NCBI GenBank assembly: GCA_963826785.1
Contig: CAWGYD010000006.1
Coordinates: 256,001 to 320,000, forward strand
Direction: 5' to 3'
From: an uncultured delta proteobacterium
GTDB taxonomy: Bacteria > Desulfobacterota > Desulfobacteria > Desulfobacterales > Desulfosalsimonadaceae
Length of the DNA: 64,000 nt
Position 1 is the stretch's first letter; the number at the start of each line of letters is the position of its first letter. Below the pieces are notes generated by a model. It ran no database searches. It was not told where the DNA came from and was given only the letters and a program-made list of their open reading frames with translations. Shown here one piece after another: positions 9,043-18,611 of the stretch. The position numbers were made by a program, and so were the translations under genes.

Positions 9043-9238
9043 ACTGAGGCGACCTGCCTGCGGGTTTCTCCCGCTCACTGTTCATTATTTTGATGCTTCT
9101 AAGGCTTGCTCCGCTGCATCCTGGAAACTCGCCTGTCGGCTCAGACAATCCAGGATGCGGTCGCTGTGCTTCGCCAAGAAGCATTTTCAAAATAATGAAG
9201 CAATGTTCGCCGAGAGAAACCCGCAGACAGGTCTCAGT
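9043..9238. repeat. ~200-bp long imperfect inverted repeat (MITE/REP-like hairpin) after acnA
   Basis: Nested arms: GACCTGCCTGCGGGTTTCTC/GAGAAACCCGCAGACAGGTC, TTCATTATTTTGA/TCAAAATAATGAA, ATGCTTCT/AGAAGCAT, GCATCCTGGA/TCCAGGATGC. Confidence 0.85.
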
Positions 9239-9279
9239 GCCCGTGCAAACCAATTCAACTCAGAAACCCAATGCTTGGA

Positions 9280-10537
9280 CCGGACTCCTGACGGACGCGT
9301 GGACATGGGTCTGGGGAGCGAATTGTATATTTTTGCCCTCATCGCCGGGGACGTGCGATCCTCAATTTCCACGAATGAATTCAACTGATCGGCTGCCCTG
9401 GCCGGCAAAAAGATTCTGAGCGGACCAGATTCATGTCCATGCGCCCCGTCAGCCACGGCAAAGCAAAAGATCAAAAATCCTTCAAGGAACTTGCTTCTGG
9501 AAAGGTGTTGTTTTTTTTGCAATGACCGGTTGAACACCCCCCTGGCCCCCCTCGAGGGGGGATTTAAAAGGGGAAGCACCGGCGGCATTCGCGGCATTCA
9601 TTAGGTTAGGCGTCGCAAGTTCCTTGAGGCAAAACACCGCGGCAGGGTGGAGGGCTTTCAAGAAGCTCAGGAGCCCTCCTGCTCATGATATTTCGTAAGC
9701 CGGGCTCCTGGCGGGCGCGTGGATATGGGTCTGGGGAGCGAATTGTATATTTTTGCCCTCATCGCCGGGGACGTGCGATCCTCAATTTCCTGTCACGGGT
9801 GAATCCAACTGGCCGGCTGCCCTGACCGGCAAAAAGATTCTGAGCGGACCAGATTCATGTCCATGCGCCCCGTCAGCCACGGCAAAGCAAAAGATCAAAA
9901 ATTCTTCAAGGAAGTTGCTTCTGGAAAGGTGTTGTTTTTTTTTGCAATGGCCAGGCTGAACACCCCCCTGGCCCCCCTCGAGGGGGGATTTAAAAGGGGA
10001 AGCACCGGCGGCATTCGCGGCATTCATCAGGTTAGGCGTCGCAAGTTCCTTGAGGCAAAACACCGCGCAGCGGGATGGAGGGCTTTCAAGAAGCTCAGGA
10101 GTCCTCCTGCTCATGATATTTCGTAAGCCGGGCTCCTGGCGGGCGCGTGGATATGGGTCTGGGGAGCGAATTGTATATTTTTGCCCTCATCGCCGGGGAC
10201 GTGCGATCCTCAATTTCCTGTCCGGGTGAATCCAACTGGCCGGCTGCCCTGGCCGGCAAAAAGATTCTGAGCGGACCAGATTCATGTCCATGTGCCCGTC
10301 AGCCACGGCAAAGCAAAAAATCCTTCAAGGAACTTGCTTCTGGAAAGGTGTTGTTTTTTTTTGCAATGACCGGTTCAACACCCCCCTGGCCCCCCTCGAG
10401 GGGGGATTTAAAAGGGGAGTAGGTGGCATTGCGGCATTCATCAGTTAGGCGTCGCAAGTTCCTTGCTGCAAAACACCGCGCAGCAGGAGTGGAGGTGCTT
10501 TCAAGAAGCTCAGGAGTCCTCCTTCTCGTGATACTTC
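9280..10537. repeat. Three tandem ~420-428-bp near-identical non-coding units (starts ~9280, 9700, 10128)
   Basis: GGGTCTGGGGAGCGAATTGTATATTTTTGCCCTCATCGCCGGGGACGTGCGATCCTCAATTTCC recurs three times; each unit has the palindrome CCCCCCTCGAGGGGGG; the last unit runs into the sdhB 3' end. Confidence 0.95.
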
Positions 10538-13281: not shown

Positions 13282-14376
13282 ATGAGCCATCATATTACGC
13301 TGATCCCGGGTGACGGGGTCGGACCGGAAATCTCCGACGTGGCGAAGCGCTGCGTTTCTGCGCTGGGCGTCGATATTCAATGGGATGTGCAGACCGCCGG
13401 CGCCGCGGTAATCGATAAAGAGAACACCCCGCTTCCGGAACGCGTGCTCGATTCCATCCGCACAAACCGGGTGGCCTTGAAAGGTCCCATCGAAACCCCC
13501 ATCGGAACCGGGTTTCGAAGCATCAACGTGCAGCTTCGCCAGATACTGGACCTGTTCGCCTGCGTCCGGCCATGCCGCTTTTATAAAGGGGTCCGCACCC
13601 GCATCACCGATCCGGAGCGCATCGATCTGGTGATTATCCGCGAAAACACCGAGGATCTCTATGCGGGTATCGAGTTCATGGAAAAATGCGGGGAGGACAA
13701 CGAACTCATCTCCTTTATCAACAAGCAGGCCGGAGTGGACCTGCACTGCGACACCGGCATCAGCATCAAGCCCATATCGCGGCGGGGTTCGACACGGATT
13801 GTCACCTTTGCCTTTGAATACGCGAAAAAGCACGGCCGCAAAAAAATCACCGCAGTGGACAAGGCCAATATCATGAAGGTCAGTGACGGGCTGTTTATGA
13901 ACGTGGCACTGGAAGTCAGCCGGAAATACCCGGACATCGCCTATGACCACAAGCTGGTGGACAACATGTGCATGCAGCTGGTGCAGTACCCGGAAAAATA
14001 TGACGTGCTGGTGCTGCCCAATCTATACGGGGATATCATTTCCGACCTGGGCGCCGGCATTACCGGCGGACTGGGGATCGCCCCCGGGGCCAATATGGGG
14101 GATGACTACGCGGTGTTCGAAGCCACCCACGGCAGCGCCCCGGACATTGCCGGGCAGAACAAGGTGAACCCCACGGGCCTTCTGCTGTCCACCGTCATGA
14201 TGTTGAGATACATCGGAGAAACCAAAGCCGCCGACCGTCTTGAACAGGCGGTCGCCACGGTGATCGGGGAAGGCAGAAATGTCACCTGGGACCTGAAAAG
14301 CAAAGATGCCCCGGATCCGCCGGTGGGCACTAAAGAAATGGGGGAGGCGATTGTGGAGAGGATTGAAAGCCTTTAG
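13282..14376 (+). CDS. icd: Isocitrate/isopropylmalate dehydrogenase family, probable isocitrate dehydrogenase
   Basis: LIPGDGVGPEI, RSINVQLRQ, RENTEDLY, KANIMK, NLYGDIISD, EATHGSAP; TCA-cluster context. Confidence 0.85.
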   Translation: MSHHITLIPGDGVGPEISDVAKRCVSALGVDIQWDVQTAGAAVIDKENTPLPERVLDSIRTNRVALKGPIETPIGTGFRSINVQLRQILDLFACVRPCRFYKGVRTRITDPERIDLVIIRENTEDLYAGIEFMEKCGEDNELISFINKQAGVDLHCDTGISIKPISRRGSTRIVTFAFEYAKKHGRKKITAVDKANIMKVSDGLFMNVALEVSRKYPDIAYDHKLVDNMCMQLVQYPEKYDVLVLPNLYGDIISDLGAGITGGLGIAPGANMGDDYAVFEATHGSAPDIAGQNKVNPTGLLLSTVMMLRYIGETKAADRLEQAVATVIGEGRNVTWDLKSKDAPDPPVGTKEMGEAIVERIESL

Positions 14377-14642
14377 CCATAGTCACTTTTGTATCCCGTC
14401 CCTCCCTTGGGCCAGGAAAAGATCACCGCTCCGGCATCGCACACGTACCAGCAGGACGCACATTCCATGCAGGTGGCCAGCGTCCGGATGGCGGCTTTCT
14501 GGTTCACCAGGTGCCAGCAGTCGCCCAGGCAGGCATTGACGCAGTTTGCGCACCCGGTGCATTTTTCCCGGTCCACCCGGATGAACTCGCCGGTGTCGCC
14601 GGACCATTTTACCCCGGGAAAATCGTTTCGGGTCAGGTTCAT
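14373..14642 (-). CDS. 2x[4Fe-4S] ferredoxin (FixX-like)
   Basis: CTGCANCVNAC and CMECASCWYVC; C-terminal WPKGGTG typical of FixX; follows the FixC-like gene. Confidence 0.85.
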   Translation of the reverse strand: MNLTRNDFPGVKWSGDTGEFIRVDREKCTGCANCVNACLGDCWHLVNQKAAIRTLATCMECASCWYVCDAGAVIFSWPKGGTGYKSDYG

Positions 14643-14661
14643 CGATCAATTCCTCCTGAAA

Positions 14662-16320
14662 TTATTCAAATAACTTCGGATTTGCCCGGCCCACGAAGTT
14701 CACCAGTCGCTGGGACAGCCATTCGCCCAGCGGATAAAGCGGCTTTCGCAGGAAGGTGTAGACGGGCCGGATCACCGGCAGCAGGACTTTTACGACCGGG
14801 TTCACCAGGCCGGAGAGGAAGCCCCCGGCAATGGCCAGCAGCTTGAACACCGGGCTGCCGATCCGCAGCAGAAAATCGAGCCCTCCCACCAGCACCCGAA
14901 AGATGATTTCCCCCGCCACCGGCCGTTTTGACGGATGGTAGGAAAGCGACTCCCGGCCGAAGAATTCATATGCGTTGTGTATATAATTCTGGTAGTACCG
15001 GAAATACATCTTGATCCAGCGGGTGATCACCCGGGGGTCCCTGCGGATGAATTCGCAGGCGGTTTTGAGCACCGGGGAGAGGGAATGGGCCAGCTGCCCC
15101 ATTCCCCAGGCGTCATGCACGCATTTTCGAAGCTGCCGAATGTCGTGTTTCTCCTGGGCATAGCGCAGATTGAACCGGTTTTTCGCCGATATGGACCACT
15201 GGATCACCGCATGGTTTTTGATCCGTCGATCGTATTCTTTCAAGAATGACCGGGTCGTATTATTGACGCGGATGGCTTCAATGGCGACGTCGGCTGCTAT
15301 ATCGGCGGAAAACCAGGCCGCGGGCACACCGTCGCACAGCTCCGTGGATTCAAGACCCGCCGCATCGCCAATGAGCAGAATGCCGTCATCATGGTTGGGC
15401 ATGTTCCGCAGCTTGGGGTCGAGGCCCACATAAATTTCGAATCCCTCCCACATGCGGGCCCGAACGCTGCTTTTGGGGGCCACTTCATCGCGCCACCAGG
15501 GAAGCTTGGTGGTGATGTTGTCGTGGTACTCCCGAAAGCGCTTCTTGAGATTGGGCACTCTGCTTCCGTCCAGGCGGAGGCAGTGGTCCTGGATATAGTG
15601 GATGCTTTCCCGATAGGGCCATACCATCAGCCCGTTTCCATGCCCCAGGGGCGGAGCGATCTTCTGCTCGTCCCAGCCCCAGCAGAAGCGCAGGGAGTAG
15701 CCGAAGAGCCGGTCTACATCCGCCTTGTCCATGACATAGTCATAGGTGTCTGAAAGGGAAATGACCTCGGGCGGGTATTTCTCCCGGATGCCGGCTTTGA
15801 CCGCCACCAGGCCCTGGGAGCCTTCCCCGTCGATGACGATCCGGCAGCGGATGCGGGTGCCGTCTTCCAGAACGACGCCGATGACGGCCTTGTTTTCCCG
15901 GATCACATCGATCACGGTGATACAGGTGCGGAGTTCCGCTCCCGCTTCCACGGCCTTTTTCGCCAGCCACTCACAAAAGGGTTTGCAGTAGGTATTGTAC
16001 CCGAAAGCCACCACAGGAGAAAAAGGTCTGGGCACCCGCAGGGTGTCGTCGATTTCGATATCCCCCGAGTCGATATCTTTGATGATGTAGTTGATGATCC
16101 CGTCCGCAGGCCGCTCGAACGGCGGGTTGCCGTCCCGGATGAAATCAGGGCCGAACAGGAATCCGTAGATGGGAATGGTCAGGCCCGAGATGACCTTTTC
16201 CCCCACATTTTCGGCGCGCTCCAGCATCAGGGTCTTCAACCCGGCCAATGCGCACTTTCGGGCTGCCACCGGGCCGCCGAAGCCCGCACCGATGACGACA
16301 ACGTCGTATGTCTGGTCCAT
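14662..16320 (-). CDS. FAD-dependent oxidoreductase, FixC/geranylgeranyl-reductase family, with hydrophobic C-terminal extension
   Basis: VVVIGAGFGG, LERAENVGEK, VIDGEG and LLIGDAAG motifs. Confidence 0.8.
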   Translation of the reverse strand: MDQTYDVVVIGAGFGGPVAARKCALAGLKTLMLERAENVGEKVISGLTIPIYGFLFGPDFIRDGNPPFERPADGIINYIIKDIDSGDIEIDDTLRVPRPFSPVVAFGYNTYCKPFCEWLAKKAVEAGAELRTCITVIDVIRENKAVIGVVLEDGTRIRCRIVIDGEGSQGLVAVKAGIREKYPPEVISLSDTYDYVMDKADVDRLFGYSLRFCWGWDEQKIAPPLGHGNGLMVWPYRESIHYIQDHCLRLDGSRVPNLKKRFREYHDNITTKLPWWRDEVAPKSSVRARMWEGFEIYVGLDPKLRNMPNHDDGILLIGDAAGLESTELCDGVPAAWFSADIAADVAIEAIRVNNTTRSFLKEYDRRIKNHAVIQWSISAKNRFNLRYAQEKHDIRQLRKCVHDAWGMGQLAHSLSPVLKTACEFIRRDPRVITRWIKMYFRYYQNYIHNAYEFFGRESLSYHPSKRPVAGEIIFRVLVGGLDFLLRIGSPVFKLLAIAGGFLSGLVNPVVKVLLPVIRPVYTFLRKPLYPLGEWLSQRLVNFVGRANPKLFE

Positions 16321-16436
16321 TGATCATCCTTTTTGCCGTGCTGTTCGAATTATTCGTCACCATACTAAACCGAACAGAATCTGGCAAGGTCTTATATTAT
16401 TTCAGGAACGGCAAAAGGATGATCGTTCCTTTGATC

Positions 16437-17204
16437 TTATACCGACGGTGAAATGTCTTCACCGGGCCGATGTGCAAACAGATCCCGGAACTGCTCCGGA
16501 ACCTCTTTTGGATTCCAGAAAGGACGCGTCCGGGATATTTCTTCCAACTCCGAAATCAGCGCCTTGAAATAATGCTGGCACTTGCTGGCATAATCTAAGT
16601 CCAGACGCCGCCGAAACATCTCGCCGGAGAATAATTGGGCGATATTTGCCAGGGGAAGGATGGCGTCCTCGGTGCCCGGGACGAACCCGGACCAGCTTCG
16701 GATATGCTCTTCCGACCGGAAGAGGTTCATGGTACTTCACGAGTAGGGGAGCCGGTCCATCCATTTGGCGAAGGGGACCGCCACGTACCCCATGATCGTG
16801 TCGGGTTTGGTGGAACGGATCTTGCCGTTGACCATTTCGATGTGAACGGGTTCGGCGCAGTCCAGGCAGGGGGCGTCGATCTCCACCCGCTGGTCCTCGA
16901 ATAGCCAGCTTACAGCCAGCGATTCGAACCCTCACTGCCCGAACCACTTCTGCTCGCCGTCCACCGTGATCCGATACTGGGTGGGAATGTTTGAAAACGG
17001 GGCAAAACTGGCGATGTAATCGGTGTCGGTGGCGGTCCAGGTTCCCGGGATTCCCAAATCCATGAGTTCATGCAGCGCCTTGCGGGCATCTTCCACCGGC
17101 AGATTCAGCACCGCCGACAACTCCGTGTAATGCGGCGCCTGGCCGGTCATTTTCATCTTTTCAATGATGGTGTGATAGGTTTTGTCCATCAGGGATGTGG
17201 CCAT
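16437..17204 (-). CDS. MerB-like (organomercurial lyase family) protein of 255 aa with two predicted selenocysteines (UGA at 16934-16932 and 16739-16737)
   Basis: AGGAG RBS and ATG at 17204; one frame through two TGA to TAA at 16437; N-terminal HTH-like region, then APFSNIPTQYRITVDGEQKWFGQ-U-GFESL, EIDAPCLDCAEPVHI and PYS-U-STMNLFRSEEH, which align with MerB motifs; hairpins follow both UGAs. Confidence 0.85.
16704..16736 (-). promoter_or_regulatory. Putative bacterial SECIS element 2
   Basis: UGA-AGUACC-AUG-AAC-CUCUUCC-[GGUC]-GGAAGAG-CAU; perfect 7-bp stem, G-initiated loop 19 nt after UGA. Confidence 0.8.
16892..16931 (-). promoter_or_regulatory. Putative bacterial SECIS element 1
   Basis: UGA-GGGU-UCGAAU-C-GCUGGC-[UGUAA]-GCUGGC-U-AUUCGA; apical loop with G starts 17 nt after UGA. 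Confidence 0.75.
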
Positions 17205-17483
17205 AAACGTTCTCCTTTCTGATTTGCAGATTGAGAGCCCGCCGGAAAGTCCTGCAAAGGCGGGAAAAGGACGCATGCGTGCCTTCGTTGTCCTTGCCGG
17301 CATATAACACCACTAATGACAGTGGGTCCGCCGTCAAGGCGCAGAGGGGCAAAACGTGCTTATGAAGCTGATATTAAAGCAGATGGGAGGAAGGAATATT
17401 TTTTTTTGGCTGCCATTTTTTTTTGCGCCTGACCTTTGCGTTCTCCTGCGGGGGAAAAGATGGAGCGGAAAGAAAATCCTCCT

Positions 17484-18611
17484 TTATGATATCAGCCCGG
17501 GGGAGGCCAGCTCAAAGGCCCGGTAAGCTTCGTATTTTTCCGGGTCCAGGGGATAATCCCAGCATCCCTGCCGGTGAACCAGGCGGCCGCCGAAGCCGGT
17601 CTTGAACCGGTACAGGCCATACATCCGGTGGCAGGGGTCCGGTGTGGGGGAGATGCCGAACAGGTCGTAGTCGCGGCAGCCGGCTTTCCTGGCCATGCAG
17701 ATGGCCTTCCACTGAAGGGCGTATGAGGCCATGAGATGGCTGTATTTCGAGGATGAAGCCCCGTACAGATAGGTGGCCCGTTTTCCGGCCAGCACGAGCA
17801 TGATTCCGGCCGCCGGCCTGCCATTTGCCTCGGCCAGCAGCAGGTGGACCTTGGCCGGGGAGTTCGTATCCGTCGAACGGACTTCTAAAGCCGCCCGGAA
17901 GTAGTCCAGATCATTTACGGCCATGCCGTGCCGGGCGGCCGTTTCACAGTAGAGGTCGTACCAGGCCCCAAGATCGGAGATTCCCCCTTCCCGGACCGAG
18001 ATCCCCTTTCGGGCCGAGACGCGAATGTTATAGCGGGTTTTGGGTTTCATATTCTTCAAGATGTGGTCCCGGTCCGCATGCAAATTGACGATTACCGTAT
18101 CGGGCGGGAGCAGGTCGGTGGGGGCCTTGCGAAGATTCCACCGTTTGGTGTCGAAATTCATGCGCATTTCCCGGACCCGGACCTTGGGTGCGCCCATCCA
18201 GTGATGATCTTTCGTGTAACGGTTTTTATCCTCGCACCAGGGAGATTTCCACGGCAGGTCATACCGGATAAACAGGCAGTTTTCCGGAAGATGGGGCCGG
18301 AGCCGTTCGGACAGCTGTTCCAGCCAGCGGCCCCGGCGTTCTTCATCCGGCAGCAGCTCGGGGCCAAAAGGAACATAGGCCATTTGCGCGGCGGCATTGA
18401 TCGGCCGCATGACCACCAGCATGTCCGTACATGGACCGATACCGTCGGCCGGCGGTTCGCCCGATTTGAGCAAAATGTCAAAGGCGATGGTTTTTCTTCC
18501 CTGCTTCTTTTTCAGGCGGTCCCAGAAGGCCGTCTGCTGGAGGATCGGCGTGGGAGCAAGGTGCCGGGATTTTTTCGGAGCGATTTTGAGATTCATGATT
18601 CCACGATTCAT
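17484..18611 (-). CDS. FemAB/FemX-family (GNAT-fold) peptidoglycan bridge aminoacyltransferase
   Basis: LQTAFW, MKPKTRYNIR, YLYGASS, LQWKAI, YDLFGI, GLYRFKTGFGG. Confidence 0.88.
   Translation of the reverse strand: MNRGIMNLKIAPKKSRHLAPTPILQQTAFWDRLKKKQGRKTIAFDILLKSGEPPADGIGPCTDMLVVMRPINAAAQMAYVPFGPELLPDEERRGRWLEQLSERLRPHLPENCLFIRYDLPWKSPWCEDKNRYTKDHHWMGAPKVRVREMRMNFDTKRWNLRKAPTDLLPPDTVIVNLHADRDHILKNMKPKTRYNIRVSARKGISVREGGISDLGAWYDLYCETAARHGMAVNDLDYFRAALEVRSTDTNSPAKVHLLLAEANGRPAAGIMLVLAGKRATYLYGASSSKYSHLMASYALQWKAICMARKAGCRDYDLFGISPTPDPCHRMYGLYRFKTGFGGRLVHRQGCWDYPLDPEKYEAYRAFELASPGLIS

Follow-up and report, generated by a model that had tools for sequence, protein, structure and literature searches.

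The window, the whole stretch of 64,000 nucleotides that was analysed, carries on its minus strand a gene for a predicted MerB-fold protein that is interrupted by two in-frame TGA codons. The list of open reading frames holds it as two pieces, 16932-17303 and 16437-16730, which the earlier note had assigned to one frame; reading of the frame bore this out. From ATG 17204 to the TAA at 16439-16437 there are 255 codons, and the sole interruptions are TGA codons 91 and 156, with 64 codons between them. The predicted protein contains the motifs WFGQ-U-GFE, CLDC and PYS-U-STMNLF, and the features of the locus are the following:

16437..17204, minus strand: gene for a 255-aa MerB-fold protein with two predicted selenocysteines (frame, Pfam, model and fold search)
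17212..17217, minus strand: Shine-Dalgarno sequence AAGGAG, 7 nt before ATG 17204; relatives are arranged alike
16932..16934, minus strand: UGA codon 91, predicted Sec at the MerB Cys96 position (alignment, codon counts)
16923..16925, minus strand: Glu94, at the position of the MerB proton donor Asp99 (alignment; Glu in 115 of 116 loci)
16904..16920, minus strand: putative SECIS 1 upper stem-loop, loop UGUAA; the lower stem extends to about 16928-16896
16857..16868, minus strand: CLDC, residues 113-116; C113 corresponds to the MerB structural Cys117, C116 is additional
16737..16739, minus strand: UGA codon 156, predicted Sec at the MerB Cys159 position (alignment, codon counts)
16707..16724, minus strand: putative SECIS 2 stem-loop, loop GGUC (conservation in 80 dereplicated genes)
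Protein domains: N-terminal winged helix, residues ~1-67; MerB core, ~68-203; C-terminal helix, 205-224

A start at 17303 was rejected in favour of ATG 17204, because of the AAGGAG upstream of this ATG and because the relatives begin there, with a similar site. No sequencing run was listed for window positions 15500-18500. A scan for promoters and terminators was uninformative (2 promoters and 2 terminators, where chance predicts 0.9 and 1.4), and no operator or riboswitch-like motif was found in 75 upstream regions, where only Shine-Dalgarno words recur. The gene is flanked by a FemAB-family gene and an FAD oxidoreductase gene, neither of which recurs beside the relatives. The FAD oxidoreductase (552 aa) is followed by an 89-aa ferredoxin-like ORF; the pair occupies window positions 14373-16320 on the same strand, 116 nt downstream of the MerB-like gene, and we take it to be FixC/FixX-like. 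Elsewhere in the window, the ORF translations 9187-9597, 9782-10114 and 10147-10422 are nearly identical over long stretches, which suggests that an element is repeated in the intergenic space (9187-10422) between the aconitase and succinate dehydrogenase genes.

The relationship to MerB was evident at several levels. With C in place of U, the protein scored 77 bits against the Pfam MerB model PF03243 (gathering cut-off 27), as the earlier note had led one to expect. The NCBIfam MerB cut-offs were missed widely (NF009710, 31.9 of 193 bits; NF033555, 23 of 200) and the SaoL model NF040728 gave 45.4 of 140 bits. Among 67 alignment members, no NCBIfam family beyond the SaoL and MerB models matched, and the best SaoL E value was only 7e-13. 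The AlphaFold model (pLDDT 91.9, pTM 0.87) superposed on MerB2 (5C17; Z 16.5, rmsd 3.5, 190 aligned) and on MerB (3F2F; Z 15.5, rmsd 4.0, 182 aligned). Indeed, the top 8 matches of the fold search were all MerB or MerB2 (Z 10.5-16.5), the best non-MerB entry reaching Z 4.4, although identity to MerB in the structural alignments was about 16-21%.

Aligning the family profile to solved MerB structures placed U91 at Cys96, E94 at Asp99, C113 at Cys117 and U156 at Cys159, the last being clearest against the C160S mutant MerB. Both motif correspondences read by eye from the letters, WFGQ-U-GFE with the Cys96/Asp99 region and PYS-U-STMNLF with the Cys159 region, are thus those of the profile alignment. 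Of all positions in the protein, only the two that hold the metal ligands would carry selenocysteine. Two further claims of the earlier note survive in part: Glu94 does replace Asp99, but it is not tied to the Sec form, being invariant in an alignment with Cys/Cys members among its rows; similarly, the extra CxxC is present as CLDC, yet it is not special to the Sec form, since many distant Cys/Cys relatives have a CxxC. The idea that Glu is a co-adaptation to Sec was ruled out because Cys/Cys members carry Glu too.

We searched 401 genomes of the phylum and found a match in 47. The 55 match rows comprised 43 with two TGA codons, 1 with one TGA and a TAA, and 11 without a stop (2 partial and 9 distant); with this genome included, 39 of the 401 sampled genomes are carriers. 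The sediment metagenomes yielded at least 519 confirmed matches among the 600 candidates listed. Codons were read in 116 loci: the 30 best genome loci, 2 second copies, 4 loci from a scan of named genomes and 80 metagenome loci, these being the best 80 by score of the at least 519 confirmed matches. Homologues with TGA and with Cys at both sites were found, both TGAs recurring in 110 of the 116 loci. The first site was TGA in 111 and Cys in 5, and the second TGA in 113, Cys in 2 and another codon in 1; CLDC was kept in 114. More divergent copies likewise keep both TGAs, and the Cys/TGA combination was read directly solely in L031, L032 and L098. Extra stops mark three loci (L006, L069 and L113) as decayed copies. 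L006 (G325:C14:4059-4745) has a TAA at codon 22, Gln for Glu94 and no second UGA, and its SECIS 2 is intact.

Gene callers give fragments of such genes, as had been foreseen: 38 of the best 150 database representatives end just before the first UGA. Among 121 aligned database proteins, 67 have Cys at site 1 and 4 have Cys at site 2; Cys/Cys at both sites accounts for 4 proteins. In another 63, site 1 is Cys and site 2 is empty; nearly all of these end just before site 2, and we infer that they stop at the TGA. The remaining pattern is Trp at both Sec columns, in 53 of the 121. These entries fit translation under code 4, to which gene callers appear to have switched because of this gene; the close Trp/Trp matches (within P0003-P0070 of the protein database) sit on short contigs.

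The natural forms of the family are Sec/Sec, Cys/Sec and Cys/Cys. In a quick tree of 92 rows (unrooted, with no canonical MerB or SaoL sequence among them, and excluding the broken L006, the fragment L161 and the duplicates L158 and L159), a long branch (SH-aLRT 99) sets a group of 66 rows apart from the rest. This group holds all Sec/Sec rows, the presumed Cys/Sec rows and 8 Cys/Cys rows, with interleaved labels, which suggests repeated Sec-Cys exchange in the family. Named relatives belong to the Syntrophales and Desulfomonilia (Cys/Sec) and to the Miltoncostaeaceae (Cys/Cys); these relatives, together with the gene content, suggest that the genome of the window belongs to the Desulfobacterota. 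Other MerB-fold families of the phylum (L142-L150) have Cys/Glu/Cys centres, no stops and lengths of about 225-300 aa, and several carry a long hydrophobic C-terminal tail.

If the UGAs are decoded, each should be followed by a SECIS element, and the earlier note had pointed to a hairpin with a G-containing loop after each TGA. These loops stand 17-19 nt downstream of each UGA. SECIS 1 would pair +12..+17 with +23..+28 around the loop UGUAA, and SECIS 2 +13..+19 with +24..+30 around GGUC. The folding energy of SECIS 1 is better than chance would give (z -2.77, equalled by 2 of 200 shuffles); that of SECIS 2 was no better than chance (z -1.09, 28 of 200). We therefore turned to conservation, reducing the 110 TGA/TGA genes to 80 below 90% DNA identity (mean 67%). 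All six upper-stem pairs of SECIS 1 were kept in 80 of 80 genes, and in SECIS 2 five pairs were kept in 80, one in 79 and one in 73, with a few changes on both sides. The GGUC loop recurs in 76 of the 80; the UGUAA loop of this genome is unique among them, yet its G is kept. Moreover, synonymous codons are frozen beneath both stems: Ser95 is TCG in 74 of 74 and Leu96 CTG in 71 of 78 for SECIS 1, and Leu161 is CTC in 69 of 70, Arg163 CGG in 78 of 78 and Ser164 TCG in 78 of 78 for SECIS 2. At 51 other conserved degenerate positions, codon entropy averages 1.9 bits, with a minimum of 1.28. Covariation is slight because most stem pairs are invariant, and the synonymous freeze is in these alignments the stronger evidence for SECIS elements. 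Conservation, and not energy, is thus what puts both predicted hairpins beyond chance.

The Sec machinery of this genome gave a mixed answer. The tRNA-Sec gene (selC) was found and selA scored over the cut-off but was split across two frames; no selB or selD turned up in the assembly, which is 87.8% complete. The selA gene lies at G000:C3:45278-46644, with the frame break near a G run at about 45845. Since 2 of the 26 other relative genes tested are also split by frameshifts, assembly indel errors are suggested, and gmk and other neighbours of selD in a same-family genome are missing from this assembly as well. Given these faults and the incompleteness, gaps and errors of the assembly are the most likely cause of the missing selB and selD and of the split selA. 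Motif searches showed in-frame TGA codons in five other genes, all intact: those for FdhA, HesB, two MvhD proteins and HgcA, the last with its TGA in an N-terminal CU extension. Among the 38 other carriers, 36 have selB, and a divergent two-UGA copy lies ~7 kb from selB at G169:C44:21588-31148. Co-occurrence with the Sec machinery was nevertheless rejected as proof, because selA is present in 371 of the 401 genomes of the phylum anyway. All together, codon conservation, hairpins and fold make it very probable, at the level of the family, that both UGAs are read as selenocysteine through two SECIS hairpins and that the protein has a MerB fold with a Sec/Glu/Sec centre in place of Cys96/Asp99/Cys159. 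That the copy of this genome is itself decoded seems likely.

We then asked what surrounds the gene. No conserved neighbourhood emerged: no neighbour is common to more than 9 of 104 loci, and even this most shared one looks like synteny among kin. From 77 dereplicated loci, 97 of the 130 immediate neighbours, picked mechanically as ORFs, were scanned; 62 of the 97 had a Pfam family, among them 4 redoxins, 1 ArsR-type and 1 metal-resistance family. No mer gene was found among these 97 neighbours or in the ORFs of window positions 6000-28000, in keeping with the claim that merA, merR and merT are not nearby. SaoC was found in 0 of 39 genomes, in a search without a positive control, and the gene never stands beside hgcAB in the loci read. 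A plasmid location was rejected: the search gave just 18 weak matches, to Ralstonia, and the best 10 of them reached about 26% identity. In the Miltoncostaeaceae a DUF169 gene (Pfam) follows the Cys/Cys gene, and in 5 metagenome loci the gene after the MerB-like gene presumably is a DUF169 gene too; the DUF169 loci are L034:8745-9461, and L103:4374-5171 with four related loci.

Mercury genes were searched in the same genomes. This genome has hgcA over the cut-off with hgcB alongside (388901-387879 and 387862-387539 on G000:C1). An in-frame SC-TGA, forming a CU motif, lies on the minus strand at G000:C1:388958-388956, 19 codons upstream of the called hgcA start. No MerA scored over the cut-off here (best 388 of 454 bits), and only 1 of the 38 other carriers has one (31 candidates scored per genome). 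HgcA is found in 20 of the 38 other carriers (two partial and below the cut-off) versus 101 of 362 non-carriers (Fisher p 0.003, which exaggerates the difference, since related genomes are not independent observations and carrier genomes are on the whole larger). The link to HgcA is thus a loose one, since 18 of the 38 show no HgcA and 101 HgcA genomes lack the gene, quite apart from kinship.

What may such a protein do? We consider the chances about even that it is a stand-alone metal-carbon lyase of anaerobes, or a trap acting by cleavage, with methylmercury as the likeliest substrate. By analogy to the model of the MerB mechanism and of the roles of Cys96, Cys159 and Asp99 (PMC10114901), the metal of an R-metal cation, which is most likely methylmercury, would be gripped between two selenolates and its bond to carbon weakened; a proton from Glu94 would go to the carbon, and RH (methane) would leave. 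In cells without MerA, the Hg(II) product may be stripped by sulfide or small thiols, or alternatively may stay bound, in which case the protein would act as a trap with slow or single turnover. The chalcogen/acid/chalcogen pattern kept at all three catalytic positions counts for a lyase, as do the Pfam and fold matches to MerB, the predicted Sec at just the two ligand positions, and the hgcAB genes of this genome together with the higher frequency of HgcA among the other carriers. So does the retention of Glu94 in 115 of the 116 loci, for a passive binder would not obviously need an acid. A selone mimic able to break the C-Hg bond is also described (PMC10114901). Several points count against a lyase, namely the low identity to MerB, the missed NCBIfam cut-offs, the lack of mer neighbours, the near absence of MerA from carriers, the looseness of the link to HgcA, and the split selA and missing selB and selD of this assembly. 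Of natural variants at position 99 a single one has been studied, the Ser of MerB2, and its activity is much reduced (PMC10114901). In addition, a selenol is deprotonated at neutral pH, so Sec is a poor stand-in as the proton source proposed for Cys159. Hg-Se binding is also so tight that product release is a problem.

A more specific reading, which we put forward tentatively and rate as rather doubtful, takes this protein for the enzyme that is missing from the picture of biological methylmercury demethylation by sulfate-reducer-type anaerobes. It would be a C-Hg lyase that needs no mer genes, depends on selenium at two positions and shares its cell with HgcAB. Every merB survey would have missed it, because gene callers cut at the UGA and filters demand Cys96/Asp99/Cys159. 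One organism would then both make and destroy methylmercury.

Other functions were weighed against the lyase. The best of them, unlikely as we judge it, keeps the MerB-type lyase and moves it to another organometal(loid), such as methylated As, Sb, Sn or Pb or a metabolic organometallic, as was suggested for SaoL. The non-canonical centre with Sec and Glu, the lack of mer context and the abundance of the family in ordinary sediment metagenomes would all suit it, and Haft and Gwadz (bioRxiv 10.1101/2022.07.06.499078) argue that a metal site built with Sec may accept a different range of substrates. On the other hand, the single ArsR-type and single metal-resistance families among the 97 neighbours indicate no other substrate, and HgcA is more frequent in carriers.

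It is improbable that the protein is a non-catalytic, high-affinity binder or chaperone for Hg or soft metals, buffering Hg(II) or methylmercury and possibly exchanging Hg with HgcAB. In terms of general chemistry two selenolates make an ideal soft-metal clamp, MerA is nearly always missing, and this genome's HgcA is another candidate selenoprotein, with a CU motif. The conserved acid at the proton-donor position argues against a mere binder, as do the separation from hgcAB in the loci read and the roughly half of carriers that show no HgcA.

Still less probable is a redox enzyme on a MerB scaffold, cycling a U91/U156 diselenide with the CxxC 113-116 or an adjacent redoxin as partner. Most bacterial selenoproteins are redox enzymes (PMC9312934), the CxxC is conserved, and no kind of neighbour recurs more often than redoxin genes (4 of 97). 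Three of these four come from one genome family (f46), however, and the MerB equivalent of C113, Cys117, is described as buried away from the active site (PMC10114901, PMC8261052). Moreover, the fold search returned no MerB-fold redox enzyme.

A metal-sensing regulator, binding DNA by its winged helix and metal by its Sec pair, is very improbable. Residues 3-67 do match the DNA-binding domains of LexA, DtxR and MntR (Z 3-4.4), but the structural alignment to MerB itself covers residues 3-202, so the winged helix is part of the MerB fold, and the 75 upstream regions share no motif other than the ribosome site.

Finally, that the TGAs are nonsense mutations, sequencing errors or the remnant of a gene in a lineage that lost Sec decoding is scarcely credible, despite the broken selA, the missing selB and selD and the decayed copies elsewhere, because 110 of 116 loci share the same two TGAs and their SECIS codons are frozen, this genome keeps tRNA-Sec and five other intact UGA selenoprotein genes, and the faulty assembly probably accounts for the gaps.

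A lyase acting on methylmercury would matter for mercury cycling. Net methylmercury in anoxic sediments is methylation minus demethylation. The pathways of anaerobic demethylation are described as unresolved, and that of sulfate reducers as possibly abiotic (PMC10114901). The gene makes enzymatic anaerobic demethylation directly testable, in bacteria of which many also hold methylmercury-making genes; if active, it would be a named gene to test and would tie the fate of mercury to selenium supply. Whatever the substrate, it adds a selenoprotein family with predicted Sec at both metal ligands, whose three natural forms allow testing of what Sec does at a metal site.

To place the family among known systems, we compared it with the literature on MerB and on bacterial selenoproteins. 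Metagenome screens keep only Cys96/Asp99/Cys159 proteins (PMC12484752). According to the MerB survey PMC8261052, relatives that depart from the Cys96/Asp99/Cys117/Cys159 signature exist and many MerB genomes lack MerA, yet its section 10 names no Sec or Glu99 variant. The same survey states that no MerB-only genome encodes HgcAB, whereas hgcAB and the two-Sec gene co-occur here without MerA. The family would be invisible to this survey and to the screens because so many of its database entries stop before the first UGA or read Trp/Trp. In the available parts of other sources, 'MerB' occurs only in the one-Sec SaoL row of PMC13188914 and is not mentioned in PMC12013277; the BSepDB supplement (PMC13326102) has no MerB term, but also no HgcA or SaoL, so its blank is uninformative. 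No two-Sec MerB was found in the literature searched, as far as these texts extend. The family is thus a widespread, stand-alone double-selenocysteine MerB-fold family of anaerobes, an earlier description of which was not found in that literature.

The closest precedent is SaoL (NF040728; bioRxiv 10.1101/2022.07.06.499078), which the earlier note had named correctly as a MerB-like selenoprotein, although with one Sec it is not of the same form. SaoL shares with the present family the MerB fold, the anaerobic hosts, the Sec at the Cys159-equivalent site and the truncation by gene callers. Its single Sec belongs to a CU motif, its first site retains Cys and Asp, and it is the marker of a nine-gene SAO locus; the present family, by contrast, has two Sec, Glu, S-U rather than C-U at the second site, and stands alone with no recurring neighbourhood. 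Identity with SaoL was ruled out by the differences at both sites and by the score far below the cut-off. The N-terminal CU of HgcA in this genome resembles the HgcA selenoproteins of the same preprint.

With MerB (plasmid R831b; PDB 3F0O, 3F2F, 1S6L) and Bacillus MerB2 (PDB 5C17) the family shares the fold and PF03243, and with MerB also the positions of both metal ligands, the acid and Cys117. It differs in having Sec instead of Cys at both ligands, Glu instead of Asp99, no counterpart of Cys160, an additional Cys that completes a CxxC, a C-terminal helix, and the absence of a mer operon and nearly always of MerA. A Sec/Glu/Sec centre would thus be chemically analogous, and not identical, to that built on Cys96 and Cys159 in canonical MerB.
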